Shown here: positions 1,634 through 55,256 of the stretch, piece by piece | Layout of the letters: the number at the start of each line of letters is the position of its first letter | Numbering within the stretch: the stretch's first letter is position 1 | Origin: a virus | DNA: 64,000 nucleotides | Virus record (IMG/VR): IMGVR_UViG_3300036981_000286 | Coordinates: 1-64,000 of that record | Direction: 5' to 3' (one strand) | Made by a program: the position numbers and the translations under genes | Notes under the pieces: model-generated | What the model was told of the DNA's origin: nothing | The model's database searches: none | The model's input: the letters and a program-made list of their open reading frames with translations, nothing else

Positions 1634-1954
1634 ATGACACCATATGAATTTGGCCGAAGTATAAAGCTCGCTGTAACTAGCGCGCAGCCACCAGCCCCGA
1701 CAGCTTATGAGAAGACATGGCAGCCCAAGCAGCAGTCTTACGGTGGCACTACCAAGCTCATTCCCCCGATGACGCCTGCCATGGCTGCCCCAGGGCGCTC
1801 AGGTGGGACGTATAGGCACGCTATTGCTCGCCCGGCCCAGCTCAAGATCCAAGGCCGCCCCGAGCAAACTGAGCAGCTACGGCTTTCTCCAGACGGCGAA
1901 ATGGAGATCTATAACCCGCAGGCTGAATACGACGCCCGGCCGAATAACACATAA
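1634..1954 (+). CDS. Putative virion internal protein with N-terminal YEFG..KLA motif
   Basis: MTPYEFGRSIKLA resembles the FG/KxA motif of other ORFs; the track's 1451 start would run through the terminator. Confidence 0.6.
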   Translation: MTPYEFGRSIKLAVTSAQPPAPTAYEKTWQPKQQSYGGTTKLIPPMTPAMAAPGRSGGTYRHAIARPAQLKIQGRPEQTEQLRLSPDGEMEIYNPQAEYDARPNNT

Positions 1955-1980
1955 AATATCTTTGTAGGAATATACCAATT

Positions 1981-3066
1981 ATGCCTTTTCGTTCAGAAAA
2001 GCAACGTAGATATTTATTCTCTAAACACCCTGAACTTGCCAAGCGGTGGGCGCAGGAATACCCCGAATCGAATAAGGGCTTGCCAATGTATGCGCATAAT
2101 AACAAAAACCAGCATTCTGACGACTCTGTAAGCAAAGAGCAAGGAATCAAGCAGGGTATCTTGGGAATAATCAAAGCTTCTAGGTATATGGGTAAATTCC
2201 CTAATGATATCTTTGTAGCTCGAGTAAAACAGCGTAATTCCCCAGTAAACACCAAGGTTTCCAACTCTATTTTGAATTACGTGGCTGTTCCGCATAGTAG
2301 CCAGCCAGTTTCAGCCGGCGAAGAGCAAGTAATGTCTGCGGGTGCTGTCCTTGGGAATAAAGACAACGATAAGTCTTTGTCAGTAAGTAATAAAAACCAA
2401 GATCCTGTAGAGAGATTATTTGGGATCTCGAGCAAGTGTTCTTCGGCTTCGGCAAACCCTGCGAATGCAGAAATTGCGCCGATACTGAAGGAATTAGGCT
2501 TAGCGTGGCAGAAAGCTAGTGCGGTGATGAAACCCGGGAAAAACGTGCAGGCGATGATCCAGGCGAACATGGCAGCAAAGGATAAAGCGCAGAATGTGGC
2601 TCGTGGAATATTGGGCTCGGCGCGTGGGCTAGATCGTGGAACGGCCCAAATTTCAGCTCCCGACCCCTATCGCTTCTCTTCCCAGCAAAAAACTGATGGA
2701 TTAAACCTCCCGGCACTTTCCCGCGGTGTGAATACCCTGAAATTGCAGCGCCAAATGGCTCAAAACCCACTACCCTTGGGCCATCCGAGCGGAAATGGGC
2801 AGCAAACCCCGAATAATACCCCTGTTGCGAGCTATCCGGGTATGGCTAGTTCTCCTCCTCCAGCGAACACGCGATTGAACAGCAACGTAGCCGCTGGCCG
2901 AAGTGCCCGGACTGATCCTATTGGGAAACAGGGCCCGCTAACTATGGAAAACGGCAAGCCAAGCTTTACTCAGAATTTAACTGGGAATAACGCCCTTGGA
3001 GGCGCCGGGAATATGCACGGACTCGAAGGCGGGATCTCAAGCTTTGGTATCAAGCGCATGTCGTGA
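1981..3066 (+). CDS. Low-complexity putative virion internal protein
   Basis: N-terminal MPFRSEKQRRYLF...AKRW motif of a type seen in phage proteins; N/G/P-rich remainder; QKAS junction. Confidence 0.65.
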   Translation: MPFRSEKQRRYLFSKHPELAKRWAQEYPESNKGLPMYAHNNKNQHSDDSVSKEQGIKQGILGIIKASRYMGKFPNDIFVARVKQRNSPVNTKVSNSILNYVAVPHSSQPVSAGEEQVMSAGAVLGNKDNDKSLSVSNKNQDPVERLFGISSKCSSASANPANAEIAPILKELGLAWQKASAVMKPGKNVQAMIQANMAAKDKAQNVARGILGSARGLDRGTAQISAPDPYRFSSQQKTDGLNLPALSRGVNTLKLQRQMAQNPLPLGHPSGNGQQTPNNTPVASYPGMASSPPPANTRLNSNVAAGRSARTDPIGKQGPLTMENGKPSFTQNLTGNNALGGAGNMHGLEGGISSFGIKRMS

Positions 3067-3163
3067 TAAAATACCTAGAGAGATATTCAGAGAGAGATAT
3101 TTTCTAGCGTTTCTGGCCCCACCCCCAGCAAACTCCTGATACCTAAAAAAAAGCTGAAATACT

Positions 3164-3175
3164 GGCATATACTAT
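3164..3175 (+). promoter_or_regulatory. Putative early promoter variant GGCATATACTAT
   Basis: Same motif family; precedes an ORF-less structured region. Confidence 0.55.
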
Positions 3176-3538
3176 GAGGGAGCTTATGCTCTCCTCATAA
3201 GCTCGTCTCCGGACCCAGCCCCCTGCGCACTTGTCGAACACCCAAGTGCGTAGGGCGAGGCTGGGTTCAGGCGTTTACGGGCGTGTCAGCAGCAGGGCCC
3301 ATACTAAAAGCACTGACTCTCTCGCCCCAACGGATCTGCAGCGCGCTAGATCCGTGGCAAAGTTGCTCGTTTCGCAACTGGGCGAGAGATGAGCCGAAAC
3401 GCTTAAGCTTAAACGCTTAAGAGTAAATCATGTACACCAGAGAAGCTTAGTCAGCGCGCGACTCGGCTTCTCTGGCGCGGTATCCAGCCGTAGTGACGAA
3501 AGTGGACTAGAGCAGGCTTCGGCGCTGCTCTTTTTTTT
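3174..3538 (+). ncRNA. Candidate ~350-nt structured non-coding RNA
   Basis: No ORF in the track; bounded by promoter motif and terminator; several long stems (cccagcc/ggctggg, tgcgcacttg/caagtgcgta, ctctcgccca/tgggcgagag, ccagagaagc/gcttctctgg). Confidence 0.6.
3509..3538 (+). terminator. Intrinsic terminator
   Basis: agagcag-gcttcggcg-ctgctct followed by a T run. Confidence 0.8.
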
Positions 3539-3686
3539 GATATTAGCGCTTAGGGATATAGCTGGGTTATATCTCTCTAGCTATCTCTCTGGCATTACTG
3601 GGGCTAATACTAGGAGTATAAGCACGCGTAATACTCGGGTTATTAGCCCGAAAGCTAGCATTGGGCTAAATACAGGCCAAATACCC

Positions 3687-3698
3687 GGCATATGAAAT
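3687..3698 (+). promoter_or_regulatory. Putative early promoter variant GGCATATGAAAT
   Basis: Same motif family, upstream of ORF 3785. Confidence 0.55.
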
Positions 3699-3784
3699 AA
3701 GGAAGATTATGGTGTTCCGAGGGTATTCATCCTCGCCATGTTCTTCTCTGGGGACTAGCACCCTAAGCTAGAAGGAGAGTTATC

Positions 3785-4642: not shown

Positions 4643-5809
4643 ATGCCTGAAAATTCTGCGCCGACTGTAGAAAACACCCCCGCAGGTGTACAACCGTATA
4701 GGGGTCACTTTTCGGATCCGTTAGCGACCGGCGGTGTGGGTGCGCTTTTTGGCGCTGCTATAGGTGGCGCACACGCTCCAAAGGGGAAGTTGCTGAAATA
4801 CCTATTAGGCGGAGCTGGCATAGGTAGTGTTGCTGGCGCGACAACCAGTTTAGGCCGAAATATGGGACAGTACGCCGCGAATCACGTTTCTGACAAATAC
4901 CAGCTTACTGGAAATTCTGAAGCGCTCGCCCAGCTCGGTCTTCCGATCTCTGGAATTATTGGCGGCGGATTACTCTCGTTGCCAGTAATTCACCGGATCA
5001 ACGAAGAACTCGAGCACAACCCCGAAGCTCGCCAGCGCAAACAAGAAAAAACAGCGGCGTATAAATTTGGCAAAAGCATAGCTGACAATCTCTCGACGCT
5101 ATCGCTGGGGAATTCTTCGGCGCCGGCCCAAAATAAACTTATGACTAGCGGCTCGGGGATGTCTTTACCGCCTATGCCAAAATCACCGCCCCCGACATAT
5201 TCTGGCGGCAATGGTTATACCGGCAAAACTCCGTCGTGGTCTAATCTAGCAAACAATATGGCGGCAAACTCTGGTCGGGTAGGCAACGGTATTCTATCGA
5301 CCGCCGCGGGAAGTGTTGGCGCGCTCGGTGGTTCTGTAGCGGCCTTGGGAAACAGCATGTGGAACGCTGTCACGCCAAAAAGCATGAACACGTCTGACAA
5401 TTTTACTGCCGGCATTAGCGATGGCATAGACGCGTCTGGCGAGTTTGCCCTCAATGGCGCACAAGACGTTTATGGGGGCCTGGGCGGCGACACAAATTAC
5501 CAAACACAAAACGCATGGAATCAAATGGAGCGCGCGCAGAACGACTCAAGCGTTTCGCCAGCGCTCAGGACTACATCGCAAATATCTAGCAATGTCGGGT
5601 ATGGCGCAATGGCCGCGGCTCAGGCGTTAGCAAATCCCGCCAAAGCTGGTTTAGGTTACGCCGCGCTTGGAACTGGGCGGTTTGGCTCTGGCCTGCAAAA
5701 CATGTCAAATGTAAATCGCGGCGCAAAGACGCTCGCTACAATAAATAACGTCGACACCGTATCCGGTCTTGGCCAAATGGGTAACAGCTTTTTAAATGCC
5801 GCACAATAA
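4643..5809 (+). CDS. Glycine-zipper putative virion internal/ejection protein
   Basis: GxxxG-rich helices; EKTAAYKFGKSIA junction. Confidence 0.65.
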   Translation: MPENSAPTVENTPAGVQPYRGHFSDPLATGGVGALFGAAIGGAHAPKGKLLKYLLGGAGIGSVAGATTSLGRNMGQYAANHVSDKYQLTGNSEALAQLGLPISGIIGGGLLSLPVIHRINEELEHNPEARQRKQEKTAAYKFGKSIADNLSTLSLGNSSAPAQNKLMTSGSGMSLPPMPKSPPPTYSGGNGYTGKTPSWSNLANNMAANSGRVGNGILSTAAGSVGALGGSVAALGNSMWNAVTPKSMNTSDNFTAGISDGIDASGEFALNGAQDVYGGLGGDTNYQTQNAWNQMERAQNDSSVSPALRTTSQISSNVGYGAMAAAQALANPAKAGLGYAALGTGRFGSGLQNMSNVNRGAKTLATINNVDTVSGLGQMGNSFLNAAQ

Positions 5810-5829
5810 AAAGAGCACAGGAGTTAAGC

Positions 5830-7497
5830 ATGAGCGACGCTACTAATTTTGGAAAACAAGCTGCTAATGCCTGGGGCGCAGCTGGAACTCTTGCAAGAAG
5901 AGCAATTACGGGTTTAACCGGCGCAGGAACGCCGGCAGCGAAGGCTACAAATATGCCGAAAGTCACGATCTCGCCTGCGGATGTTGCTCAAGCCGGCCGG
6001 CAAATGCCTGCTCCGGCTATGCCCAAGCCCCCGACCGCGCCCAAAATTACAGTCTCTCCCGCCGAGGCTGCTGCTGGTCGGGCTAAAGTCACAATTACAA
6101 ATAATGATCTTGCGGCTAAACCTTCTGCGGCGGCCACTGCGACGCCACCCAAATTAACGCCTGTGGAAATGGCTGAAATGAAGCGCATGAACGCCGCTGG
6201 CCAAGGATATACCCTTCCGACTAATCGAGCTCCCGTCGTCGCGCGAGCTACCCAGCAAAACGCAGACGCGGCCATGCGAGCGCGACTTAATGCTGGCGGC
6301 GGAACTCCTCAAGAACTGCAGAAAGTTTTGGGCCCGACATTTGGTGAAAATGCCGCGCGTGTTGCTGGTGCGGGCAAAGCTCAGCCAGCCATGCCTCCTG
6401 CGGCGCCAATCAGAATTTCGCCATTGGAAGCTGCTGCCGGCCGGGCTAAAGTCACAATTACGCCCGAAGAAGTGGCTGCTGTGAAATCTGGCGCGGCTAA
6501 GTTTGGCCGCAAGGTCGCAAACCGCGTGGACTTCTACGAACGGGCCCCAAAAGACGAAACTAAAAAGAAGCTGCCTGACCACGAGATTTTTAACAACGCG
6601 CTCATGCGGGCCGAAGCTGCAGGCGAGAAGCCGAGCGCTGAGTTATTTAACAGCATCGGCAGCGAATACAAGGAAAAAGCTAAAAAAGAAGCTAAGAGCA
6701 AGTGCGTTCCGTGTGATTCGGGTATGTACAAGAATTATGACCGCGGCGTGTATCAAACTGGCCCGATGCAAGCTATGGACGCCGACGAGGCCATTTCAAA
6801 AGCTAATGGCGGCGTAGAAGCTACTGAAGAGACCGAGCACGCTGAAAAAGACATTCACAACTCTGGCCAAAAAAGCGCTTACGCGTTTGGCTGGAAGGTT
6901 GCATTTGATTTAGAGAATTTAACGGGTAATGTTGCGCCGTCCTCGAGTCGGCCGATGCGACCTAATATGCTGGATCAAATGCCTGCAAAAGTGTCGCCGT
7001 ATTCTTCTGAGTATGCGCCCGGGCAAGCACCGTCGCGAATGCCGCCAGTGTCGCCGCAGAAACTTGACCTTGTTCCAGAAAAACTTACGCTGCTGGCGTC
7101 GTTGCTTAATGCTGGGCGTAGTGCTGGGCGTAGTGCTAGCAACGCAATAAGCTCGGGCGTGTCTGCGGTAAACGACGCACGGCTTAGCACCGGCAAAGCA
7201 ATAGGCGAGGGCGCTCATGCGCTCAGCGCGTACGGCCCTGAGCTTTGGACTGGCCCTGCAAAACCGGGTATGACACCGGGCTACAAGGCCCCTAAAGCTG
7301 ACGCCCCTAAAGCTGACGCTCCTAAAGCTGACGCCCCTAAAGCTGACGCGCCGGGTGCTGCGGCTGGTTTAGCTGGCTTGCCGTGGGGCACAATTGGCGG
7401 TGCTGGTCTTGGCGCTGCTGGGTTATCCGCGCTGGCGTATCACCTCATGAGCAAGAAGAAGAAAAAGAAACAAGACGGTAGCGACGAAGAAGGTTGA
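5830..7497 (+). CDS. Ala/Pro-rich modular putative virion protein
   Basis: Three FG/KxA junctions (NFGKQAA, KFGRKVA, KSAYAFGWKVA); C-terminal Gly-zipper plus poly-K. Confidence 0.7.
   Translation: MSDATNFGKQAANAWGAAGTLARRAITGLTGAGTPAAKATNMPKVTISPADVAQAGRQMPAPAMPKPPTAPKITVSPAEAAAGRAKVTITNNDLAAKPSAAATATPPKLTPVEMAEMKRMNAAGQGYTLPTNRAPVVARATQQNADAAMRARLNAGGGTPQELQKVLGPTFGENAARVAGAGKAQPAMPPAAPIRISPLEAAAGRAKVTITPEEVAAVKSGAAKFGRKVANRVDFYERAPKDETKKKLPDHEIFNNALMRAEAAGEKPSAELFNSIGSEYKEKAKKEAKSKCVPCDSGMYKNYDRGVYQTGPMQAMDADEAISKANGGVEATEETEHAEKDIHNSGQKSAYAFGWKVAFDLENLTGNVAPSSSRPMRPNMLDQMPAKVSPYSSEYAPGQAPSRMPPVSPQKLDLVPEKLTLLASLLNAGRSAGRSASNAISSGVSAVNDARLSTGKAIGEGAHALSAYGPELWTGPAKPGMTPGYKAPKADAPKADAPKADAPKADAPGAAAGLAGLPWGTIGGAGLGAAGLSALAYHLMSKKKKKKQDGSDEEG
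7291..7350 (+). repeat. 15-bp tandem repeat x4 (PKADA)
   Basis: cctaaagctgacgcN four times, in frame. Confidence 0.9.
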
Positions 7498-7528: not shown

Positions 7529-8797
7529 ATGTCAGACTTCACCGTTGACGACGCAGCGCAAATTGCACAGACAGACCCCACGCTAAGTGCAAACACTGAG
7601 CCGGGGTTTACGAACACGTACACGCCATACTCCAATATCCCAAAGGGTTATTTGGCTGCTGGCGTGCCTCTTGCAGGCGTCGGCGCACTTGGCTTAATGC
7701 TGCTGTATAAACGGCATCAAGAAGACCAGCAGCGTAAGAAACTTTTAAAAGCTGCAGACTGGCAGAGCATTAAAGCGCAGCTGCCGGGTGTGCATGCCAA
7801 GGATATTTTGCTTGGAGCTGCTGCGGGAGCTGGTGGTGGCGCGCTTTATGACCTGTTTTCTCCGACGCCTAAAGACAAGAAAAAATTACCGACAGCATTG
7901 CGGCGTATTCTTACGGGCGCGGCGATCGGTGGCGTGGGCGCAAATGTCGTCGGTGACCGCGCGCGTCGGTATATCTCTAACGTTAAAGTTCCGATTGGGT
8001 ACGGCAGCGCTGATTTAACGCCTAAATCTTTTGCGCAATTTGGGCGCGCGTTTTTTGCCGACAAGCCAGCCTACGATCCCGAAGAGCTCAAGGCACTTTT
8101 ACCCGCGTTTGGCGGGAACAAGGCCATACTCGACGACGTTGTGCAATCGCGCCGTGAACTTACTCGGCGGTCTTTTGGCGTGCATAGTGACGCGGGGGCA
8201 GATTACTGGCAGAAAAATAAAGGCGGCAAAGGCCCGGACTATTATTCGCTTAACGAGAAAGCGCCGGACTATTTGCAGCGCTTGAATAATTTGTTTATGC
8301 CGTCGCCTCGGAAACCAGAAGTTGCTTACAAAGGCCAGAATTTTACGCTCAGTAATCCGCAGAAAGCTATAGCCGCGCTAAATAACGCGGGCATGTCAGG
8401 GCAACACGTACAGCCAATCGACATTTTTGGTAGTAATACTCTTGTGGGCGACCAGCAGCTTGCTACAAAGCCAGACGGTAAAAACCTGGAAGGCCGTGTG
8501 CTTGATCGGTGGGACGTTACGCCAACTTCTGCCGAGAAGAAATACATCTGGGACGCGATCACCGGCCGAAAAGTTTTAAATCCTCGGTGGTATGGCGCGC
8601 AAGCAGAGCTGCCCGGTTATTCAAAAGACCAAACAAATACGTCTTTTATCGGCAGCTTGCTTGGCCGGCTTTTCTGGGACAACGTGCTTACTGAAGAGCA
8701 CCCGTGGGTAAGTCAGCGGTTTCGGTTTACAGAACCAAAAAGCATGCAGCTTATGAATGAAGCTGGTACGCCGCAATTAGAGCTTGAAGGCAAATAG
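7529..8797 (+). CDS. Glycine-zipper hypothetical protein
   Basis: Hydrophobic helix, LKAAD junction, GAAAGAGGG...KKK...GAAIGG hairpin, globular C-terminus. Confidence 0.7.
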   Translation: MSDFTVDDAAQIAQTDPTLSANTEPGFTNTYTPYSNIPKGYLAAGVPLAGVGALGLMLLYKRHQEDQQRKKLLKAADWQSIKAQLPGVHAKDILLGAAAGAGGGALYDLFSPTPKDKKKLPTALRRILTGAAIGGVGANVVGDRARRYISNVKVPIGYGSADLTPKSFAQFGRAFFADKPAYDPEELKALLPAFGGNKAILDDVVQSRRELTRRSFGVHSDAGADYWQKNKGGKGPDYYSLNEKAPDYLQRLNNLFMPSPRKPEVAYKGQNFTLSNPQKAIAALNNAGMSGQHVQPIDIFGSNTLVGDQQLATKPDGKNLEGRVLDRWDVTPTSAEKKYIWDAITGRKVLNPRWYGAQAELPGYSKDQTNTSFIGSLLGRLFWDNVLTEEHPWVSQRFRFTEPKSMQLMNEAGTPQLELEGK

Positions 8798-8891: not shown

Positions 8892-9725
8892 ATGCGACGC
8901 GTCAATCTATTGCTATCTTTAATTTTGGGTATTACGTTTCTACTACCAACCCCAAGTTACTCAGGCACTCGCGACCCCAACACTCCAGACACTAAATATC
9001 TTGTTTATGGCGCAAAATTTAATTGCGTCGCTCGCGTGCAGGCTGTCTACCCCCGCAAAACTGGCCGCACAACGGCTTTTGCGTCTGCTGTACTTATACG
9101 GCCTAATTGGGCAATCACAGCCGCGCACGTGCTACATGAGTCTAACGAAGCTGCGCTAATGCTTGACGACGGCCGTACGGTGCCGGTTGCAAAGCAGATT
9201 ATTCACGCAGACTACACACCAGAGCCGCAGATTTTGGGCCTGCACGACATAGCGCTGTGTTATATTGCCGATGATATGAAATTAGCGTTTTATCCAGAGC
9301 TCTATAAAGACTTTGACGAGCAAGACCAGATTTGCAGCTTAGCCGGCTATGGCTCAAACGGCACATTCTTGACGGGCCCAAACGCCGATGACGAAAAACG
9401 CCGCGCTGGAAGCAATAAAGTAGAGCTTGCCCGCGGACCTGCGCTTATTCTTACGCCTAGCCAGCAAAACCGAACTGAGCTTGAGTACTTAATTTGCTCA
9501 GGAGACTCAGGCGGCGGGCTTTTTCTTGGTAACAAATTAGCCGGTATTCACTCGTTTGTCATGTGTGAGATCGGAAAAAAACCTGACAGCCGGTATCATA
9601 CAGAATCCGGCCATACGCGCGTGAGCCTGTACTACGACTGGATTAACGCGCAAATCGAGCTGCATGAGCTCACCATTCAAAGCCGGTTAACGCTGAGTCC
9701 TACCCTCCCCACACTAGAAAAATAG
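8892..9725 (+). CDS. Secreted trypsin-like (S1) serine protease
   Basis: Signal peptide; triad motifs TAAHV, HDIAL, GDSGGG. Confidence 0.9.
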   Translation: MRRVNLLLSLILGITFLLPTPSYSGTRDPNTPDTKYLVYGAKFNCVARVQAVYPRKTGRTTAFASAVLIRPNWAITAAHVLHESNEAALMLDDGRTVPVAKQIIHADYTPEPQILGLHDIALCYIADDMKLAFYPELYKDFDEQDQICSLAGYGSNGTFLTGPNADDEKRRAGSNKVELARGPALILTPSQQNRTELEYLICSGDSGGGLFLGNKLAGIHSFVMCEIGKKPDSRYHTESGHTRVSLYYDWINAQIELHELTIQSRLTLSPTLPTLEK

Positions 9726-43680: not shown

Positions 43681-43761
43681 AACAGTGGATCGCAAAGTCA
43701 AATACAGGTAAATTATCAGTTATCTGTTTCCGAATAGCGCAAATGCCGCATGGAGGTGGCT

Positions 43762-46164: not shown

Positions 46165-46174
46165 TAGGTGAAAA

Positions 46175-46570
46175 ATGGCTGGCACTATTTGGTCTGGCGA
46201 AACAAGCTTTTCGGCGCCCTCCGCAACAGAAACAGTCGTGACGCTAAAAGTACCGCATCGCGGCGTGCTGCGTGGCTATAGCCTGACGCAAACGTCTGGC
46301 GCGAACGTTGGGGCATCGGCGGCGTTATTCACAAGCAAGCAAGATACAGCGCCAAATTCCACACTGCCTGCCGAGGCGTTCCACATACTAGACATCACAC
46401 TTGGCTCTACCAGCAAGGTAGACAATCATGATCTAAACGTGGCGTACTTAAATCGCGACGGTTCTCCGACTAATGCTCAAAGATATCTTTACTTGAAAAT
46501 CACACCTGCTGGTTCTGGCATCAAGAATTTCGTGATGTCTGTAACGATTGAAACCCCGACGCTGCGATAA
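46175..46570 (+). CDS. Beta-rich hypothetical (putative structural) protein
   Basis: Clean ORF in the structural region. Confidence 0.65.
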   Translation: MAGTIWSGETSFSAPSATETVVTLKVPHRGVLRGYSLTQTSGANVGASAALFTSKQDTAPNSTLPAEAFHILDITLGSTSKVDNHDLNVAYLNRDGSPTNAQRYLYLKITPAGSGIKNFVMSVTIETPTLR

Positions 46571-47499
46571 TGCTTCAAGCTCTGCGGGATAATCCGCTTC
46601 GCGCGCCGCACTGGCGTTGGCTGCGGGCTGTGCAAATTGATGCTGGTGGCCCAAAGCCGTCCAAAGCCGTTGACGGCTCCGACGGCTTTGAGTGGATTCG
46701 GCGCATTGTGCGGTTAAAGCGGCGGCACGCTATGGCTGCAAATAAACCACACGCTGTATACGCCTTAGTGCGTTTAGACCGCGGGTTATTCTGGGCGCAT
46801 TCAATTTGGGCAGAAGAAAAGGCCCCGACACGTTGGGCTATCGAGGCTTACATTCTGGCCGGCGCGTCTGACGAGGAAATTGCTGAAAAAGTGGGTTGCG
46901 AGCCGGACGTAATTGCCGCATACGCTGCCGTGTTTTTTGATGTGCGCGGAAAGCTGCATAATGGCAATTATATCGTAAACGTTGTGATGGCAGACGCCGT
47001 TTCCCGCGGGCTGACCGAGCGCCAATACGACCTGCTGTGGAAAATGTTTGGCTACCAAGGCGGTGTTTACGTTCTCGACGCGCTTATCGGTAAGTTCACA
47101 AATATCCATAAGCCGCAAAATGCCAACGAGGTTTCTGAGTTTTTCCAGACCTCGGCCATTAATTCTATGCGACATAAAGCCGCCGTGGCCGCGCTCACGG
47201 TGCCAATTAACACGCACACCCAGCTTCCGCTCCTCGAGTCGTACGTTAAGTACGTTGAAATCGAGCGGACCACGGAAAACACCGAAAAGTCTCAAATTAG
47301 TATTGTTCAAAATATTGGTGCTATGCTTAGTCATCTGCCGTTCAAAATTGGTACAAAGCTGGATTCCGAGGGGGATAAAATGGTACCCTTTGATAATAAC
47401 GCCGCAGAATTGCGCAGTGACGAATTAATGATTGTGGCGGCTGGCGGCAAGCTCGAAAATCAAAAGATGCTTGAGAACTTAAAGTTCCCGGGAGAATAA
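46570..47499 (+). CDS. Hypothetical protein
   Basis: TAATG overlap; possible helix-turn-helix ASDEEIAEKVGCEPDVI. Confidence 0.7.
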   Translation: MLQALRDNPLRAPHWRWLRAVQIDAGGPKPSKAVDGSDGFEWIRRIVRLKRRHAMAANKPHAVYALVRLDRGLFWAHSIWAEEKAPTRWAIEAYILAGASDEEIAEKVGCEPDVIAAYAAVFFDVRGKLHNGNYIVNVVMADAVSRGLTERQYDLLWKMFGYQGGVYVLDALIGKFTNIHKPQNANEVSEFFQTSAINSMRHKAAVAALTVPINTHTQLPLLESYVKYVEIERTTENTEKSQISIVQNIGAMLSHLPFKIGTKLDSEGDKMVPFDNNAAELRSDELMIVAAGGKLENQKMLENLKFPGE

Positions 47500-47502
47500 C
47501 GA

Positions 47503-48837
47503 ATGCGTCCTTTAAGCAAAGACGCCGAGACAAAACTGCTCTCGGCTATCGAAAAGGCCGCCGCGCTCGTGAATGACGGCGCGGAACCTAACGACGCGAT
47601 TATAAAAGTCGCGACAGCGGAGAATTTTCCCGCTAATTACGTAAACCTTATGGTGCACGCCTACAACACAGGCCGCACCACCAAACAACGTGAGCTTGGC
47701 GAGACAGTTAGCGAAAAATCAGCAGATTTTAAGCTCGCCGACGTGGACACAATTATTGACGCGCTTTACCCCAAAGCCGTAAAAACCGCAGGCGAGATTA
47801 TTCGCGACACGGCTATCTCAACTGAGTACGCGGTATCGCCGTCCGGGTTTTTAGCGCGCCGAAAAGCGACTATGGAAAAAGCGGCTGCTGCGCTTTTGCC
47901 GCTCCCGGAAAAGACGTTTACGCCGCCACCGAGAGACGAGCACGCTGCGGTCATGCGCGAGCAAAGCCGCAAGGTAGCAGAAAAGCGCGCGACAGAAGAA
48001 ATTCGCCGTGTTGCTACCGTGGCGTACAGCAAAGCCGCGGTCGCGATGGACGAGCTTGCGACGTATTTTCGGTCGCCGGGCAATATGAGTTTTGGAGACG
48101 CTGTTCGGGAGACTGAGCTGCGACTTGGCGACGAAGGCGTATCAGTGCTCAAAAAGCTTGCGGAAGTTTACCCGTGGCTGAATAAACAAGCCGCCACCGG
48201 CAAACACCACTTCGGCGACAACGGCCCGTACGCCACTGTGCAGACAGTTCTTGAAAAACTGGCTGAGTACAAGGAGTATCAGGGCAAATTTAACGCTGCC
48301 AGCCCACCGCCTAAAGAGAAGAAAGCGGAAATGGTTGTTACGACAGGCTCGATTCTGCGAAACCCCGCCGAGGAACCCGTCGAACTAAAAAAAGCTAACG
48401 CGTTGTCGGGATACCCAACCGGCCCGGTTTCGGCAACGCGTTCGCTGGGCGAGACGATGTGGCAGGGCGCCAACAGCTATATTAAATCACCAGATGAAAT
48501 GCGCAATGAGGCATTTAAAGACATTACAGATCCAGACCATGACCGGAAGCTGCGCAATATTCGAGCGCAGGGCGTGCTGGCTGATTTGGTAACTAACGAT
48601 CCTGTTATTTCAGGTCACGATCCGCGGGAGGTTGCAAATGCGTTTAATGAATTGGCTGAGGTCGCTCCTAGTTTCATGGATTCGTCCGCAACCGTGCAGG
48701 CTCTTTTGCGAAAAAGACTCGAGGCCGGGCAGCTTGCTGATTTTGACATAAAGCAGCTGTTAGAGCTTGAAAAAATTAAGGCCGAGCGGACGCGTAACCT
48801 CATTGACGTACAAGATAAACAACGTGGTTTAGTTTGA
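47503..48837 (+). CDS. Helical putative virion (inner head) protein
   Basis: Dense KxA motifs (KVAT, EKSAD, KTAG, EKAAA, EKRAT, KQAA, KKAN). Confidence 0.7.
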   Translation: MRPLSKDAETKLLSAIEKAAALVNDGAEPNDAIIKVATAENFPANYVNLMVHAYNTGRTTKQRELGETVSEKSADFKLADVDTIIDALYPKAVKTAGEIIRDTAISTEYAVSPSGFLARRKATMEKAAAALLPLPEKTFTPPPRDEHAAVMREQSRKVAEKRATEEIRRVATVAYSKAAVAMDELATYFRSPGNMSFGDAVRETELRLGDEGVSVLKKLAEVYPWLNKQAATGKHHFGDNGPYATVQTVLEKLAEYKEYQGKFNAASPPPKEKKAEMVVTTGSILRNPAEEPVELKKANALSGYPTGPVSATRSLGETMWQGANSYIKSPDEMRNEAFKDITDPDHDRKLRNIRAQGVLADLVTNDPVISGHDPREVANAFNELAEVAPSFMDSSATVQALLRKRLEAGQLADFDIKQLLELEKIKAERTRNLIDVQDKQRGLV

Positions 48838-48844
48838 GGACGTT

Positions 48845-50020
48845 ATGAACGAGCAGACAACTGAAAAATTTGCCAACCTCCTCGGTGTTTATGCGACCAC
48901 CGGCAACAGCGCCGGCCTGCAAAAAGAAGCTGCGGAAAACGGCCTAATTAAATCAGCTATTAGTTCCTTAATGTACATGCCGCTTCTCGGCGCTGGCATT
49001 GGTGGCGCTAGCGGTTATTTCGGCACATCGGGCAAGGAAAAGAAAAAGCAGCGTAACGCGATGTACGGCGCGCTAACTGGCGGTTTGGGCGGTTTTGCTG
49101 GCGCGGCATTAACGCCGGTAGTCAGAGAAATGCTCTCGGCAAAGGCTGCACCTGCCGCGGCTTCTGAGCCTAAGGGCGACGGCGGTAAAAAAGAACCGCC
49201 GGGGAGCGTTTATGGCGGGCCGAACTCGACTCCGGTTGGCGGAGCGGTCGTTGGCGCCGGTGCCGTGGCTGGCGGTTTTGGCGGCCAGCGTGCGGGCGGT
49301 CAGCTTTACGACAGAGTAACCGGCACTAAGCCGGATCACGGCTCTCTTGCGCGCCTCGCTGACGCGTCCGGTAAGGCCACGAAAGGTAAAACAGGTCCGG
49401 CAGCAAAAAACGAATACGGGGTCTTAAAGAAAATTTTTGAGGCGCATAACCAGCGCGGCCAGCCCGTCGCGGCTAGTTTAGACGCGCTGCCGGCAGTACC
49501 GCCTAGACTTAGACCGGCACCGACTATGCCTCGAAGCCCTGAAACGCTCCCCGGCTTCGCGTCCGGCCACCCGAGCAGTGTAGCTGCAATGACTGATTAC
49601 AACAACGCCGTAGCGGCATACAATAACGAGCTCAAAACGTGGCGGGGCGAAGCAGCAGCGTACAATACACAACTTAAACAATTTCAAGCCGCGCGCGCAG
49701 GATTAGCTGGAAAATTGCAAGATGCTGAAGCTATTGTGCGGACGCAAAGTCTGGGCGGAACACCGGCTGAGCAAGCCCGCCGCGCAGCAATTCTTGATGA
49801 GATGATTAGAAACAACAAAGGCGCGCCCAGCGGGCGAACACTAACAGATGTTAAGCCGCATTTAAAGGGCACTACCGGGCGGCGCATTGCGCGTGTAGGT
49901 GGCGGGGGTGTGGGTGCCGTAGCCGGCGGCGCGATCACTAACCTTCTTGGGCGGATTCTTGGCAACGTGGCAGACCGCACGCTTGGCAATGTTCCCGCAC
50001 CAACAAAGCAGGAAAAATAA
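48845..50020 (+). CDS. Glycine-zipper putative virion protein
   Basis: EKFAN, QKEAA; GAGIGG...KKK.RNA.YGALTGGLGG hairpin. Confidence 0.7.
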   Translation: MNEQTTEKFANLLGVYATTGNSAGLQKEAAENGLIKSAISSLMYMPLLGAGIGGASGYFGTSGKEKKKQRNAMYGALTGGLGGFAGAALTPVVREMLSAKAAPAAASEPKGDGGKKEPPGSVYGGPNSTPVGGAVVGAGAVAGGFGGQRAGGQLYDRVTGTKPDHGSLARLADASGKATKGKTGPAAKNEYGVLKKIFEAHNQRGQPVAASLDALPAVPPRLRPAPTMPRSPETLPGFASGHPSSVAAMTDYNNAVAAYNNELKTWRGEAAAYNTQLKQFQAARAGLAGKLQDAEAIVRTQSLGGTPAEQARRAAILDEMIRNNKGAPSGRTLTDVKPHLKGTTGRRIARVGGGGVGAVAGGAITNLLGRILGNVADRTLGNVPAPTKQEK

Positions 50021-50021: not shown

Positions 50022-51497
50022 ATGAGCATGATCAAGGTTATCCAGCCAAATTCGCAAGACTTCAGCGAACCGGTTGCGTCGCTTATTAAAATTTCTAGCC
50101 GCGGGATTATTGGCGCCGACAAGCTTGACCTTGTGAAACGCGCTGGCGCAGAATTTGTGCACAAAATGGAGCACATTAAATTCGCAAAAGATGAAGTTCC
50201 TGTGCACTTAATTGCAATTGGCGCCACTGAAGACTACGGCCCCAATCGTAACGGCGACGGTTTTAAACGCGCCTGCTGCGAAAAATATCACGACACGTTT
50301 GTTAAACATGCGCGATTTTACCGCGACCATATCAACAAAAATCCGGCTAAAAGTTACGGGATCGTAAAGGCCTCGGCGTACCACGACCCCATGCGCCGCA
50401 TTGAACTTGTATGCGCGCTTAACGCGACAAAAGAAGCGGCTGACCGCAACGGCGGGTTATTAGCCGATAAAGAGCTTGAGAAGCTTGCCAACGGCGACGA
50501 TATCGGCGTGTCTATGGCGTGCACCATTCCGTTTGACGTGTGCAGCCATTGCGGCAACAAAGCCCGCACCCGCGCGGAGTACTGCGACTCAATTGAAAAC
50601 GGCGGGCACTGCAAGGCCGGCGGTTTAAAGCACAACATGGGCAAGTGCGCGTATGACGGTAGTATTTTATTCGCTGATAATACCCAACCTCGATTCTTTG
50701 ACATTTCTCACGTTTACCGCCCCGCTGACCGTATTGCCTATATCTCAGGGCGCCTTAAAGCGGCGTCAACTGGTGTAATTTCCGGCGCTGAGTTGGCAGA
50801 GCAACTTGGCGTCACCGCCCCTATGTTTTTAGACGTAGACGGCGTTTCAGCGCATACCCGCGGCCAGCTTATCGCCCTAGAAAAGCTATCCTCTGCCGAA
50901 TCTGACCCTGACTTTGGACGCAGCTGGGCAAAGACAGCACTGGCCGAATCGCCGGCTGTGCAAGAAACAATTAATATCGCGGAACTGGCCAACGTAAAGC
51001 TGGCTGAGGCTTTTCGCGCGCTTGCTGATGCGGGCGTTATCCTGCCTGTTAAGGATTTTTTAAACCTCACTGTTAAGGCCGCTGGACAAGAATTGGTTAC
51101 GTCCGTGACCGACGCCCTGCCCGGCATATTTTCAAAGTTGGCTGCTGAGCAAGATATTGTTTCAAGTTTGGAGCAAAATGCTTATAATCCAGCATATGCA
51201 GCAAATGCCCGACTTCACAGTTGGGCAGAACGGGTTGCAGCTACGCGAAGCATGTTGCCGAAAGCCGTTGAAAAGCGCGCTTATCTGGCTGTGATTCGTA
51301 ATGCAACGCCGGCGGCTATTAACGAAACAAATTTTCAATCGATGACCAAGAAAGCAGAAACAAGCAGTGCGGCGGTGAAAGCCCTTGCGCGTCATTACGC
51401 TCTGTATAAAATTGCTGCGTTCTCGGAAATCATGAAAAAATATGATGCTGATGGGTTGACAGCACAGCATTGTGTTATGCAGAATTATGTGATGTAA
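50022..51497 (+). CDS. Prohead (capsid maturation) serine protease, HK97/assemblin-like, with C-terminal extension
   Basis: NRNGDGF, FYRDH (His), VSMAC (Ser) followed by CSHCG, FFDIS.V.RPAD; upstream of scaffold and capsid; start 50022 (track 49947). Confidence 0.75.
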   Translation: MSMIKVIQPNSQDFSEPVASLIKISSRGIIGADKLDLVKRAGAEFVHKMEHIKFAKDEVPVHLIAIGATEDYGPNRNGDGFKRACCEKYHDTFVKHARFYRDHINKNPAKSYGIVKASAYHDPMRRIELVCALNATKEAADRNGGLLADKELEKLANGDDIGVSMACTIPFDVCSHCGNKARTRAEYCDSIENGGHCKAGGLKHNMGKCAYDGSILFADNTQPRFFDISHVYRPADRIAYISGRLKAASTGVISGAELAEQLGVTAPMFLDVDGVSAHTRGQLIALEKLSSAESDPDFGRSWAKTALAESPAVQETINIAELANVKLAEAFRALADAGVILPVKDFLNLTVKAAGQELVTSVTDALPGIFSKLAAEQDIVSSLEQNAYNPAYAANARLHSWAERVAATRSMLPKAVEKRAYLAVIRNATPAAINETNFQSMTKKAETSSAAVKALARHYALYKIAAFSEIMKKYDADGLTAQHCVMQNYVM

Positions 51498-51539: not shown

Positions 51540-52829
51540 ATGGCACGGATGCAACGTTCGCTCTTCGCGCAACTAAACGCGCTGGCTGAAGAAATTTCTC
51601 AGAACGCGGAAAAGGTCGCGGCTGCTAAGCAAGCCTCGCCGGTTCCCGCTGACCCGGGTGGGTATCAGGGCGCATCGACGCACCCCAGCGCGCACGTTGA
51701 TAACGATGTGCAGAAGGCGACGACGGGCGCTCGTGCATCTGAGTACGAGGCGGACGTTAAGAAGCAGCAGGGCGCGCTCGCTGTAGATAACACACCTGAG
51801 ATGTCGCAGGAAGGTCGTCAGGATGATGTTCAATTAAACATCAACACCAACGCCGCTGCGACAGGCGAAGATCCGGCCGCTGAAAAAGATTACAAGGGTA
51901 CGAAAGACGACCCGGGTACATCGCATCCCGCCAAGACCAACGACGGCGAGAAGTACAGCCACGTATCGTTTAAAGAAGCTCACACCAAGTGCAGCAATCT
52001 TGGTAACGAGATTCTGGCTGACCTCGTCAACTTCGGAACAGCTACTTTTAAAAAGGCTGAAAAAGACGTTGCCGAAGCGGTGACAGGAAAAAAAGACAAT
52101 AGCGGCAATTTAAAGGGCAACCAAAACAAGCTCGACGTCGATAAGGACGGCAAGCTCGAGGGTTCCGACTTTGCCGCGCTGCGTAATAACGACAAGGCTG
52201 CCGCTTTTTCGGCCGGCTACGAGTTAGCCGCTGCGCTTGGTATGGATAAGGCTGCGGCCGAGGCCAGTGTCCGCGACGTATGCGCGAACACGCTGCGCGA
52301 AGCTGACGAAATGGCTGATCTGTTCGTTGGGTTCTACACAGCGAAGCAGGCTGACGACGCCGCCGCTGAAGAAGGCGAAGATCACGCCGAAGAAGGCGAA
52401 TCCGAGGGCGGCGAAGAAGCGCCAGCTGTTAGCGTTGAAGAAATGATGGGCGGCGGGGCCCCGGCCGGTGAGCCCGGACTTGAGCAGGCTCCTCCGTCGG
52501 AAGACGAGGCGCTGCAAGAGCTGGCGATGGCGTTACAAGAACTAGGCATTCCGCCGGAAGCGCTGCTGCAGGGTCTTGCGGGCGAGGCCGGCGGCGAGGG
52601 AGCGATGGCTCCTGAAATGGCCCCCGAGATGGCTCCTGAGATGGCTCCTGAGATGGCTCCTGAAATGGCCCCGAAGATGGCGGCCGCTCGAGAGCTGCAA
52701 ATGATCGGTAACGCTGTTATTAACTTTCAGAGTTCCGGTAATTTTCAAGTCAAAGAGGCTCGCACCAAGCGGTCGCGCCATCTGCGAGATATCATGAAAG
52801 ATCATGTGCGCGAACTCGTTGGTCGCTGA
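51540..52829 (+). CDS. Scaffold-like acidic head protein
   Basis: Between protease and capsid; acidic/helical; KQAS, KAAA, KQAD, KMAA; GNQNKLDVDKDGKLEGSDF EF-hand-like motif. Confidence 0.6.
   Translation: MARMQRSLFAQLNALAEEISQNAEKVAAAKQASPVPADPGGYQGASTHPSAHVDNDVQKATTGARASEYEADVKKQQGALAVDNTPEMSQEGRQDDVQLNINTNAAATGEDPAAEKDYKGTKDDPGTSHPAKTNDGEKYSHVSFKEAHTKCSNLGNEILADLVNFGTATFKKAEKDVAEAVTGKKDNSGNLKGNQNKLDVDKDGKLEGSDFAALRNNDKAAAFSAGYELAAALGMDKAAAEASVRDVCANTLREADEMADLFVGFYTAKQADDAAAEEGEDHAEEGESEGGEEAPAVSVEEMMGGGAPAGEPGLEQAPPSEDEALQELAMALQELGIPPEALLQGLAGEAGGEGAMAPEMAPEMAPEMAPEMAPEMAPKMAAARELQMIGNAVINFQSSGNFQVKEARTKRSRHLRDIMKDHVRELVGR
52605..52676 (+). repeat. 12-bp tandem repeat x6 (MAPE x5 + MAPK)
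   Basis: atggcYccNRaR units in frame. Confidence 0.9.
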
Positions 52830-52847
52830 ACTTAAACGGAGGTTTCC

Positions 52848-53270
52848 ATGCCTGATACGAATCAGTTAGTTCAAAAAGTCATCGACTACATCGGTTTTTC
52901 CGATGCCGCGATGAGCAAGGCTGCGTCGGTGCTCGCTAATCGCGACGCGCAGCAAGAGAAGATTGCTCAGTTAATTCCCGAGGCTGTGAAGGCGTGCACT
53001 GAAAACGAGCGCATCGAATCGCACCAGAAGGAAGCGCTGGCCGCTGCTCTGCAAGACCCAGTTCGCGCTATGGAACTGGTCATTAAGTTAGCGTCGCACA
53101 AGAATGCCGCCGAAATGGCCCGCATTGGTGCGCCGATAACGCAGAAGTCAGCTGGATATGATCCGAATACCAGCGTCACAAGCTCGTACGTGGGAGCTCG
53201 TGACGGCAAGCTCAGGGCAAGTGACATTAAGTTGTTCACAGGTCTTGGTCTTAATCCGCCCACGAGTTGA
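52848..53270 (+). CDS. Head-associated helical protein
   Basis: KAAS, EKIA, KLAS, QKSAG; located in capsid operon. Confidence 0.65.
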   Translation: MPDTNQLVQKVIDYIGFSDAAMSKAASVLANRDAQQEKIAQLIPEAVKACTENERIESHQKEALAAALQDPVRAMELVIKLASHKNAAEMARIGAPITQKSAGYDPNTSVTSSYVGARDGKLRASDIKLFTGLGLNPPTS

Positions 53271-53316
53271 TTTCTAATACGTTACTTCACCACCAATAAG
53301 ACACGGAGGTCTTACA

Positions 53317-53877
53317 ATGGCTGTTTCTCCTGATCTTCCTTTCGAACATGGCCTTGATATCAAAAAGGGCTGGTTCGACATGGCGTCGCTCGACTACTCG
53401 GCTAAGCTGGGTAGTGTCAGCTTCGTAGTCCCCCGCGGCCGAGTTGTGCATCTCGAGGTTGTCGGCGGCGCAGAAGTGTTTCTGCCCGGCGTACGCAACA
53501 CCGACGTTGCAATCTTCCTGCTGAATGGCTCGTCCGATGCCGATGTGTCCAACCCGGGCACAACTGCGTCTGGTCGGTTTATGCATCAGGCGATCTCGCC
53601 GTCTGGCAAGTTGTCTGGCGTAGTTGCGACTGGCGGTTACGAAATTGACTCGACCGAGTTCAACGCCAATCTGTCGTACGCCCCCGGCGATCTTCTGACG
53701 GCACCGACTGGCACCTCTGCTGGCTCTGTTGCTACAGCCGGTGTTCTTACGAACGCTTCTGTCACTGTATACGTCACGCCGGTCGTCGGCGTCGTATCGA
53801 GCGGCAAGCATGTCAACCACAACGGCGTTGATACTCTCTCCTTTTGGAGCGTTTATCTCCCCGGCACTGCGGAATAA
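53317..53877 (+). CDS. Putative capsid decoration/cement protein
   Basis: Immediately upstream of the capsid gene; YAPGDLLT...G.L...VVGVV pattern. Confidence 0.55.
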   Translation: MAVSPDLPFEHGLDIKKGWFDMASLDYSAKLGSVSFVVPRGRVVHLEVVGGAEVFLPGVRNTDVAIFLLNGSSDADVSNPGTTASGRFMHQAISPSGKLSGVVATGGYEIDSTEFNANLSYAPGDLLTAPTGTSAGSVATAGVLTNASVTVYVTPVVGVVSSGKHVNHNGVDTLSFWSVYLPGTAE

Positions 53878-53916
53878 CTAACTCTTTAACTTCACCGGAA
53901 CACGGAGGTTCCAACA

Positions 53917-54846
53917 ATGCCCACTCAGCAAGAAATCCAGCTGCTTAACGAGACTCTCTTTGAGCAGCTTGACACCCCCGGCATGCAAAAGCAGGCCATT
54001 GATGCGGTTAACGACTTCACGCGCACCAAGATGCGTGAAGACGGGTTCTACCGGCGGATCATGCCGCCGCTGACCATCACCAACGACGAGCTCGACCGTC
54101 AGGTTGATACTGACAAGCCCGTTAAGGTTGTGGACAAGGAGCCCGATTCCCCGGCGGCTGTGTCGCTTCCGTTCGCGACGCTTCCGATTAACTTCTACAT
54201 CCGTGGCCCGCGCTACCGCGTCATGTTTGACCGGATCGTGTCGCCCCGCGCTGTAAAAGACGTCGACGAGCTGCGTACTTACGTCATGGACATCCGGCAG
54301 GTTCTGTCGGACAACATGATCAAGGACATGCTCGCCGAGGAAGACTCGAAGTTTATTGCTGCTCTTAACGCCGTTCTTGGCGACACTCCCGGCGCGACTA
54401 ACCTCGCTTCGGGCGCTGTGCAGTACGAGGAGATCTATGGCGGCATCACCCGCGAGACGCTGGTTGATGCTCTTAAGATCATGCCCCGTACGCCGTCGCA
54501 CTTTGAGGTTGAAACCTGCCTCGTGAATAACCTCACGATCAAGGAGCTCCTCAAGTTCGGTCGCGATGAGATGGGTGGTGACTTCTCGCAAGACATCATC
54601 AAGAACGGCTGGGCGGAAACCAATTTCCTCAACTGCCGTTGGATCGTCACGATCAAGACCGGTCTTGTCCCGACGGACACGATGTACATGTTCGCGTCGC
54701 CGAAGTTCATCGGCAAGAACTACGAGCTCGAGCCCACCACGATGTATATCCGTCGTGAGGCGTTCATGCTCGAGTACTTCGCCTACAACACGCAGGGCGG
54801 CTCGTTCGGTCATACGAACGGTCTCGCTCGCGTGGACTTCAAGTGA
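53917..54846 (+). CDS. Major capsid protein (probable HK97 fold)
   Basis: 309 aa, strongly biased high-expression codons, position after protease/scaffold/decoration; REDGFYRRIMPP, EEDSKF; N-terminal QKQA site. Confidence 0.75.
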   Translation: MPTQQEIQLLNETLFEQLDTPGMQKQAIDAVNDFTRTKMREDGFYRRIMPPLTITNDELDRQVDTDKPVKVVDKEPDSPAAVSLPFATLPINFYIRGPRYRVMFDRIVSPRAVKDVDELRTYVMDIRQVLSDNMIKDMLAEEDSKFIAALNAVLGDTPGATNLASGAVQYEEIYGGITRETLVDALKIMPRTPSHFEVETCLVNNLTIKELLKFGRDEMGGDFSQDIIKNGWAETNFLNCRWIVTIKTGLVPTDTMYMFASPKFIGKNYELEPTTMYIRREAFMLEYFAYNTQGGSFGHTNGLARVDFK

Positions 54847-54872
54847 TAACAACGTAACAAGGAGCACATGAC

Positions 54873-55256
54873 ATGGATCAGGTTAAGCAAGCCGCCGATC
54901 AGAGCGTTGCGGTACTCGTAAACGAACTGGCGGCGCCCTACTTCTTCGAGAAGCTTTCAGCGCACGGCATTCGGCCGCGCAATGAGAGCGAAGCCTCGGG
55001 TATGTGGGCTGCAGCCCAGAAACTTCACGTGCTCTATACGGCAGAGCAGCAAAAGGCCGCCGCGGTCGAAACGTCCAAACTGGCTAGCGCCAACGAGCAG
55101 CTCGACGCTGTTCTTGTCGCTGCCGGTCTGGCCGGCTCGGAAAAGGTTGCGGCGTTTAATCAAGCTGCCGACGTCGTGGCCCAGCAGCCGCACATCGCTG
55201 ACGCGGTGTTGCGGCTGCAGGCCGCGCTGGCGATTGCCGCTCAAGACGCAGGCTAA
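54873..55256 (+). CDS. Head-associated helical protein
   Basis: VKQAA, FFEKLS, QKAAA, KLAS, EKVAA. Confidence 0.65.
   Translation: MDQVKQAADQSVAVLVNELAAPYFFEKLSAHGIRPRNESEASGMWAAAQKLHVLYTAEQQKAAAVETSKLASANEQLDAVLVAAGLAGSEKVAAFNQAADVVAQQPHIADAVLRLQAALAIAAQDAG

Follow-up and report, generated by a model that had tools for sequence, protein, structure and literature searches.

A Lys-x-Ala motif as the probable recognition site of the head-maturation protease in an uncultured giant-phage clade

The stretch of viral DNA investigated here (the window) comprises positions 1 to 64,000 of IMG/VR virus record IMGVR_UViG_3300036981_000286. Its proteins feature a short motif, [E/Q]-K-x-A-[A/S], which crowds the phage head proteins and is found at the joints between the domains of multi-enzyme (polyvalent) proteins. 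We consider it probable that this motif is recognized by the phage's own head-maturation protease, a sequence-orphan putative serine protease encoded by open reading frame (ORF) 50022 (ORFs are designated by their first nucleotide in the window; coordinates are listed in Table 1). As judged from the sequences, K-x-A very likely represents a cleavage code and the polyvalent proteins that carry it are likely cargo polyproteins. A preliminary description of the same DNA had proposed that K-x-A is the maturation cleavage site. Enrichment of the motif in head proteins, conservation of its Lys and Ala, its position on both sides of a domain with the predicted T4 gp21 fold, its occurrence at every joint and its T4-like signature all speak for that proposal, the support being indirect.

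The contig measures 79.6 kb, of which the window covers the first 64 kb, and all genes lie on the + strand. The major capsid gene has 64 relatives on IMG/VR contigs, many of ~200 kb, and because these relatives sit on such contigs we consider the 79.6-kb sequence to be a fragment from an uncultured giant-phage clade. Cultured relatives of the capsid protein are limited to those of Salmonella phage Arash and of three Vibrio phages (27-28% identity). The gene content of the window includes a split multisubunit RNA polymerase (RNAP), two polyvalent proteins and a head module at ~43.7-55.3 kb.

The motif signal is modest when the window is taken alone. The pattern K.A[ASD] was found 58 times, compared to 34 +/- 5.7 after shuffling of either whole proteins or 30-residue blocks, and K was the only residue to stand out at the first position of patterns of the.xA[ASD] type. 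An unbiased scan of all three-letter patterns in the window did not rank K.A first, so that a permutation test at the level of the clade was needed. This test used 1,911 + strand ORFs (576,000 residues) from 102 related loci; each four-letter word was compared with its own letter permutations and only distinct sequence contexts were counted. Here the signal is unambiguous. The 22 most over-represented words all match (E)-K-x-A-(A/S), as exemplified by EKQA (55 observed versus 6 in permutations) and KTAA (60 versus 13). K.A[AS] is present in 776 distinct contexts versus 316 for its permutations. The corresponding ratio for R.A[AS] is 1.00: the motif is specific for Lys, with no excess for Arg. 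Glu is enriched 3-4 fold at position -1 of the clade logo, Gln or Thr are favored at +1, Ala, Ser or Glu at +3 and Asp or Glu at +4. The prediction that K-x-A exceeds what Lys and Ala composition would generate was thus borne out in the clade. Codon usage at the motif equals background, which places the signal at the protein level; a DNA-level motif was rejected on the same ground. A reading of the motif as the A-x-A box of signal peptidase was also rejected, since Lys occupies position -3 and a hydrophobic core is missing.

The distribution of sites along the window is uneven. The head module features 24 K.A[AS] sites versus 6.2 expected (P 5e-8). Three further gene sets are at chance level: none versus 1.9 in the RNAP genes, three versus 5.8 in the tail and downstream genes, and six versus 7.1 in the remaining genes. 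The preliminary description had stated that tail proteins lack the junction pattern, which is correct in that they, like the RNAP and other genes, do not exceed chance; a significant depletion of sites was not found in either RNAP or tail proteins.

At many sites, alignments of head-module orthologues show K and A kept at 90-100%, with x and the flanks variable. In ORF 47503 (sites 35, 72 and 228) K and A are present in 94-100% of 36 homologues whose flanks are at 41-47%, and at site 61 of ORF 54873 K is found in 96% and A in 100% of 26 homologues. K25 and A27 of the capsid protein are invariant across 11 diverse homologues in which x is Q, T, R, E or D, and the Arash capsid protein has KEA at the homologous place. 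ORF 51540, whose gene lies between those of the protease and of the capsid protein, is considered scaffold-like from its position and composition. It has 1.4 sites per 100 residues, those at 25, 30, 237 and 379 being retained in 80-96% of 25 homologues. The statement that capsid, scaffold and protease all carry K-x-A (for the protease see below) therefore agrees with the conservation of K and A, and variability of x, in their homologues. ORF 51540 also contains a perfect (A-P-E-M)x5-6 repeat (52560-52640), followed by a conserved K-M-A-A site.

The protease assignment of ORF 50022 comes from structure prediction. Residues 1-255 were modeled with AlphaFold2 (AF2) from an alignment with 24 homologues, giving a predicted local distance difference test (pLDDT) score of 79. 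The best fold match of the model in the PDB is T4 gp21 (5JBL; Foldseek probability 1.0, E 6.6e-3), with a VIA-align Z of 8.9 and a root-mean-square deviation of 3.9 for 143 of 165 residues aligned. The next fold matches are the assemblins of varicella-zoster virus (Z 5.8) and human cytomegalovirus (Z 4.1). According to the model, ORF 50022 thus shares the fold of T4 gp21 and the herpesvirus assemblins, the capsid maturation proteases of MEROPS clan SH. No sequence match to Pfam, PHROG or PDB was found, the Pfam search being null up to E 10 for 24 members; hhalign to T4 gp21 gave a probability of 0.1%, i.e., no similarity, and the Atlas leads for the family were weak ones only. H62, E70, H103, S164 and D172 are invariant across the 24 homologues. 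The predicted domain is bracketed by two motif copies, K39-R-A-G in the N-terminal arm and K246-A-A-S immediately after the domain. In the latter, K is found in 94% and A in 100% of 32 homologues whose flanks are at 61%. The homologous Arash protease, gp222, has KQAA at residue 30, and the gene order protease, scaffold-like protein, capsid (50022, 51540, 53917) is the same in Arash gp222-gp226.

The protease family counts 3,615 clusters at 50% identity in public data and takes in the Cluster C mycobacteriophages. Gp93 of mycobacteriophage Cali (NC_011271, record positions 45351-49211) begins with a homologue of the head-protease domain (25.6% identity over 88% of the query). It is annotated as 'tape measure', yet its gene adjoins the upstream side of the major head protein gene; we consider this a probable misannotation. 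Of the best family matches, about a quarter are 600-1,300 residues long because inteins (Hint + LAGLIDADG) split the domain (P0122, P0148, P0159, P0180). They are inserted at profile positions ~72-102 and ~168, beside the S164-M-A-C and G-x-N-R-N-G-D motifs, a location suggesting that these motifs form the functional core.

The second group of proteins with ordered K-x-A sites is that of ORFs 26437 and 10214, each of which combines at least two unrelated effector-type domains in one chain and was for this reason classified as polyvalent. In the AF2 model of ORF 26437 all five K.A[A/S/E] sites are one residue or less from linkers of pLDDT below 50, which make up 17% of the chain. Modules are swapped among the best 120 of its 428 relatives: the 2H domain, the Cys-rich peptide, two kinds of Nudix, a SKI/AAA kinase, GNAT, DUF5661 and the C-terminal domain (a search for related loci returned only near-identical contigs). 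Ten homologues with differing architectures were used to inspect the gaps between consecutive Pfam domains. Each of the 25 inter-domain gaps holds at least one K.A[AS], and a single site out of 49 touches a Pfam domain envelope, the site being typically located ~10 residues before the next domain. The proposed placement of K-x-A at domain boundaries is therefore confirmed in these homologues as well as by its mapping onto the predicted structure. Breakpoints of BLAST high-scoring segment pairs among the relatives gave a noisy signal with ~2x enrichment near sites, which is why the Pfam-gap and pLDDT tests were used instead.

In ORF 10214 the SNF2 module (residues 267-738) is framed by KVAD (263) and KTAA (742) and corresponds to the entire stand-alone Arash helicase gp217. 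At least 15 related loci lose homology at residues 739-753; in those that have an extension past SNF2, KTAA is retained and the flanks differ. The preliminary description had imagined a plug-and-play cargo system. Shuffling of modules among the 120 best ORF 26437 homologues, and the correspondence of the SNF2 module to gp217, which is found in Arash virion preparations (PMC10585845), are in keeping with this idea. Embedded processing peptidases are frequent, though not obligatory, in polyvalent proteins (Iyer et al. 2017, PMC5512222). Pfam scans of ORFs 26437 and 10214 and of the ten homologues detected no embedded peptidase domain, which, together with the presence of the head-protein motif at every joint, suggests that the head protease cuts them in trans.

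The same K-x-A code is carried by the head proteins of phage Arash, a cultured but distant relative. Sites number seven in gp220, six in the scaffold-like gp223 and five in gp225; the metabolic enzymes have none. Its RNAP proteins gp206 and gp216, which are homologous to those encoded in the window, and the helicase homologue gp217 are among the most abundant proteins of Arash virion preparations (PMC10585845). The same preparation also lists ribonucleotide reductase and similar metabolic enzymes (PMC10585845), so that its purity is uncertain and the presence of a protein in it is not proof of packaging.

Phage T4 served as a control in which the protease motif is established. The substrates of the T4 prohead protease gp21 are gp23, gp22, gp67, gp68, gp24, Alt and IPI-III. 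The T4 motif [LI].E was enriched in the proven substrates gp22 (16 versus 5.8 expected), gp21 itself (7 versus 2.6) and gp68 (5 versus 1.9), while K.A[AS] is at chance level in T4.

A subset of sites is preceded by an aromatic element whose full form is [S/T/A]-[A/P]-[Y/F]-x-F-G-x-K-x-A, with FG just upstream of the K-x-A site. In the clade FG.K.A is found in 32 distinct contexts versus 1-11 for the control pairs GF, FA, LG and YG. At least eight distinct clade proteins begin with M-x(3-10)-F-G-x-K-x-A, among them ORFs 1634 and 5830 (ORF 1634 is weakly supported as a gene, having one homologue). A Met is located 3-12 residues upstream in 21 of 49 distinct FG sites (null 19%, P 1e-4), and another K-x-A/S lies 16 residues or less upstream in 25 of them (null 13%, P 1.5e-10). 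The element looks like a short N-terminal leader of ~12 residues kept after gene fusion: many small proteins start with it and it also survives at joints, so that modules appear to have been fused leader first. The motif strings quoted in the preliminary description were found in the ORFs named there, with the exception of AFKLGF (ORF 34629) and DKAAAFSAGY (ORF 51540), offered as FG examples, which are not FG motifs. Its interpretation of FG as a helical targeting tag stands in part. F-G-x-K-x-A is real and the leader resembles a T4 capsid-targeting sequence (CTS), making a targeting role plausible by analogy only. The element could equally provide extra protease subsites and is better read as an extended or second cleavage site. 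ORF 5830, which carries three FG elements, ends with a hydrophobic segment followed by poly-Lys. Gly-zipper-like segments (G-x-x-x-G) are present in the K-x-A/FG-bearing proteins encoded at 4643-5809, 5830-7497, 7529-8797, 34629-35048, 35353-36360 and 48845-50020. These may be membrane-inserting ejection proteins.

Several features of the proposed system recall T4. Besides the fold of the protease, both have a short motif of the P3-x-P1 type that crowds the scaffold or core proteins and the protease itself. The T4 CTS are N-terminal leaders of 10-19 residues in which aromatic targeting residues (mapped to positions 4 and 7) precede processing residues (8 and 10), and the enzymes packaged by them are delivered with the DNA (PMC9026906). 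The FG leader has the same succession of aromatic and processing residues within ~12 residues, and in both cases a short N-terminal leader ending in the protease motif is common to unrelated proteins. The two systems differ in their motif, K-x-A-(A/S) rather than (L/I)-x-E, and the proteases have no sequence similarity, ORF 50022 featuring in addition a Cys-rich insertion and a C-terminal extension of 240 residues. Candidate substrates here also include, unlike in T4, multi-module polyproteins with a site at every joint.

The second-best fold, that of the herpesvirus assemblins (MEROPS S21), offers a different parallel. Herpesvirus assemblins act at release (R) and maturation (M) sites and cut x-x-A↓S/T (the arrow marks the cut), for instance YLQA↓T and VQA↓S in pseudorabies virus, and the herpesvirus R-site lies between protease and scaffold (PMC4498786), a position matched here by KAAS 246 between the protease domain and the scaffold-like C-terminal part. 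Ala rather than Glu specificity, put forward in the preliminary description, is consequently not without precedent. Differences are the Lys at P3 where assemblins have a hydrophobic residue, the phage context and the far greater number of substrates. With phiKZ (gp175) and SPN3US (gp245), whose protease motif A-x-E↓ accounts for 14 sites in 9 substrates in SPN3US (PMC10052503), the proposed system shares a giant-phage setting, a packaged multisubunit RNAP (putatively packaged here), many internal head proteins, a single protease and a three-residue motif. The motif, the capsid lineage and the protease lineage all differ, and the SPN3US cuts remove N-terminal propeptides, a module-by-module dissection of polyvalent proteins not being described there. 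Polyvalent proteins as defined by Iyer et al. (2017, PMC5512222) likewise join unrelated enzymatic domains (2H 'Swiss Army Knife', Nudix, GNAT, SNF2) in one chain with rapid shuffling. These authors predicted that such proteins are packaged and injected, and that they are processed by peptidase domains of their own, embedded zincin-like ones or, in rare cases, assemblin-like ones at the C-terminus, and they named no cleavage motif (PMC5512222). The proteins described here depart from that scheme by the lack of an embedded peptidase and by the head-protein motif at each joint.

T4, phiKZ and SPN3US are well-known cases in which a head protease trims numerous head and internal proteins at three-residue motifs; capsid-targeting leaders and polyvalent proteins are equally well known. 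In the literature searched we found neither a published K-x-A specificity of a phage protease nor the processing of a phage polyprotein by a prohead protease; cleavage data were not found in the phage G genome paper. What is new in the present system is the proposed Lys-x-Ala specificity, its use at every joint of multi-enzyme proteins that have no embedded peptidase, and the FG leader.

These observations can be arranged in a mechanism. Inside the prohead ORF 50022 would release its catalytic domain by cutting at the flanking K-x-A sites, shorten the capsid protein by ~27 residues, and chop the scaffold-like protein and other core proteins that carry many sites. Co-assembled polyvalent proteins would be cut at the single site of each inter-module linker. 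The enzymes so released (2H phosphoesterase, Nudix, SNF2 helicase, small DUF modules and, in relatives, kinase or GNAT) would leave with the DNA; packaging of such enzymes is plausible, given the abundance of the RNAP subunits and the helicase homologue in Arash virion preparations (PMC10585845). The scissile bond is probably A↓(A/S), because assemblin cuts x-x-A↓S/T and because the P3-x-P1 spacing is shared with T4 (L/I-x-E↓) and phiKZ/SPN3US (A-x-E↓).

A more far-reaching version, in which the polyvalent proteins of this widespread clade are true viral polyproteins loaded into the prohead through a portable ~12-residue FG leader and cut at every K-x-A joint, is possible and we put it forward tentatively, being inclined to doubt that it holds in full. 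If correct, any module placed behind the leader-plus-site cassette would become injected cargo, amounting to a natural and evolvable protein-delivery system. Confirmation of the K-x-A code as such would already explain how polyvalent proteins without an embedded peptidase become separate enzymes, inside the capsid of a double-stranded DNA phage. The protease would then represent a third specificity class among the head proteases of tailed phages, next to the T4 and phiKZ types directed at Glu, with a mechanistic link to the herpesvirus assemblins that cut after Ala. For a large uncultured clade the motif supplies a simple rule by which head-internal and injected proteins, as well as the ends of mature proteins, can be predicted. 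Arash, being cultured, makes it possible to test this rule, and the cassette could also serve for packing foreign proteins into capsids, a use to which the T4 CTS has already been put.

Several points weigh against assigning the motif to ORF 50022. The mass spectrometry table of Arash reports coverage only (100% for the scaffold-like gp223), so that processing is neither shown nor excluded by it. The protease has no sequence match to families S77, S78, S80 or S21, which is the reason why it is filed as sharing a fold and not as a family member, and its putative catalytic residues were assigned from invariance alone. Mycobacteriophage Cali, which has a homologous protease domain, displays no clear K-x-A excess; the specificity is therefore not family-wide. 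About half of the K.A[ASD] matches in the window are expected by chance. The number of sites in the polyvalent proteins of the window is not significant (15 versus 10); only their positions are. Finally, the genome encodes two other peptidase candidates (8892-9725 and 32727-33752).

One alternative is that the pattern is a by-product of Lys/Ala-rich helical composition, read post hoc. The window composition (Ala 11.7%, Lys 6%) indeed predicts 34 K.A[ASD] by chance and the window-only scan does not rank the motif first. The permutation-matched and local-shuffle controls, the conservation of K and A columns around a variable x, the presence of a site in 25 of 25 joints and the absence of a motif excess in T4 contradict this view so consistently that we give it hardly any weight. 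K-x-A-(A/S), with or without FG, might instead be an uncleaved short linear motif acting as a docking or assembly signal for the scaffold core, portal or shell, as a site of Lys modification, or as a linker convention. Disordered linkers and N-terminal arms, in which the motif resides, are places for docking motifs too, and the T4 capsid-targeting sequences do combine targeting with processing residues (PMC9026906). However, protease substrates are what one recognizes in the many tandem copies of scaffold-like proteins, in the copy located precisely where the protease domain ends and in the one copy found at each module joint, and a docking motif need not delimit every module; we judge this explanation unlikely.

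K-x-A might also be cut by a protease other than ORF 50022, either the trypsin-family protein encoded at 8892-9725, the papain-like candidate at 32727-33752, or a host enzyme, with processing of the polyvalent proteins outside the capsid or after injection. The strict requirement for Lys and not Arg fits a Lys-directed protease, the S1-family gene 8892-9725 is placed among FG-motif genes and has homologues in 31 related loci, and ORF 32727 has an Atlas lead to Peptidase_C1. Against this, no cultured phage has a homologue of the trypsin-like gene, not even Arash, whose head proteins nevertheless have the K-x-A code; the signal peptide of the trypsin-like protein would send it outside the cytoplasm; Ala is as conserved as Lys, which a simple P1-Lys protease does not need; and the sites flank the domain with the gp21 fold and crowd scaffold and capsid proteins, as in T4. 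The chance that one of these enzymes is responsible appears small, and cleavage by ORF 50022 remains the interpretation that we favor.

The product of ORF 32727 (32727-33752, + strand) is a candidate papain-like cysteine peptidase in which a Cys motif, a His and an N-S-W-G motif can be recognized by eye. It has no Pfam match; its Atlas neighbours carry Peptidase_C1 in 14% of members.

Table 1. Coordinates in the window of the putative protease, of proteins with K-x-A sites, and of genes listed for context.
Feature	Position	Strand	Remarks
Head-maturation protease (putative), ORF 50022	50022-51497	+	Predicted fold in residues ~16-245; Cys-rich insertion; helical C-terminal extension
K39-R-A-G site, protease N-terminal arm	50136-50147	+	K39 and A41 invariant in 24-32 homologues, down to 43% identity
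K246-A-A-S site, immediately after protease domain	50757-50768	+	Release-site-like
Scaffold-like protein, ORF 51540	51540-52829	+	Six K.A[ASD], e.g., 51612-51638, 52248-52259, 52674-52685
Small head-module protein	52848-53270	+	Three or four sites (53085-53096, 53145-53156)
Major capsid protein	53917-54846	+	28% identical to annotated Arash major capsid protein
Capsid K25-Q-A27 site	53989-53997 (KQAI 53989-54000)	+	Near protein N-terminus
Small Ala-rich head-module protein, ORF 54873	54873-55256	+	Four sites, e.g., 55053-55064; 3.15 per 100 residues
Head-module proteins with conserved sites	43750-46164, 46175-47499, 47503-48837, 48845-50020	+	
Example sites, head module 43750-50020	47605-47616, 47716-47727, 48184-48195, 44524-44535, 45397-45408	+	
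Polyvalent protein, ORF 26437	26437-28371	+	Leader, 2H-SAK phosphoesterase, Cys-rich peptide, Nudix, DUF5661 region, C-terminal domain
ORF 26437 delimiters, first three	26539-26550, 27037-27048, 27142-27153	+	KTAA, KAAS, KTAA
ORF 26437 delimiters, last two	27652-27663, ~28078-28089	+	KTAA, KAAE
Polyvalent protein, ORF 10214	10214-13198	+	N-domain, SNF2 helicase, DUF6321, DUF4236 (Pfam)
ORF 10214 delimiters	11000-11011, 12437-12472, 12881-12898	+	KVAD; KTAA-F-D-FGKRSA KTAAFDFGKRSA; FGKQAG
Small ORF 1634	1634-1954	+	M-x4-FG-...-K-L-A leader, FGRSIKLA 1649-1672
Gly-zipper-rich protein, ORF 4643	4643-5809	+	KTAA-Y-K-FGKSIA KTAAYKFGKSIA at 5048-5083
Low-complexity protein, ORF 5830	5830-7497	+	N-terminal FG leader, FGKQAA 5848-5865
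ORF 5830 internal FG-x-K-x-A elements	6502-6519, 6877-6903	+	FGRKVA, AYAFGWKVA
Pro/Ala-rich 972-residue protein, ORF 15632	15632-18550	+	KQAA-NAWG 15800-15811; homologous to ORF 5830 start; candidate substrate
Further candidate substrates	35353-36360, 40850-41566	+	
Trypsin-family protease	8892-9725	+	PF00089, E 1e-16; N-terminal signal peptide or anchor; not in the favored system
Multisubunit RNA polymerase genes	36378-40826, 41800-43680	+	Pfam; no K.A[AS] sites; context only

Some further genes were noted. In the RNAP, the beta subunit and the N-terminal half of beta-prime form one chain of 1,482 residues, the remainder being encoded by a gene for 626 residues. Beyond the window, at contig positions 74229-75074, lies the gene of a 281-residue protein that resembles Arash gp10; the latter was identified in the virion preparations of Arash and bears the annotation RNA polymerase sigma factor. 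The gene at 20621-22132 (+ strand) encodes a 503-residue protein in which a GT9 heptosyltransferase-like and a Methyltransf_24 domain are fused. The one at 24568-25572 (+ strand) codes for an actin-family protein that matches Pfam Volactin over its full length (PF25216, E 1.9e-63, residues 1-331 of 334), homologues of which are found in six related loci at 73-77% identity.

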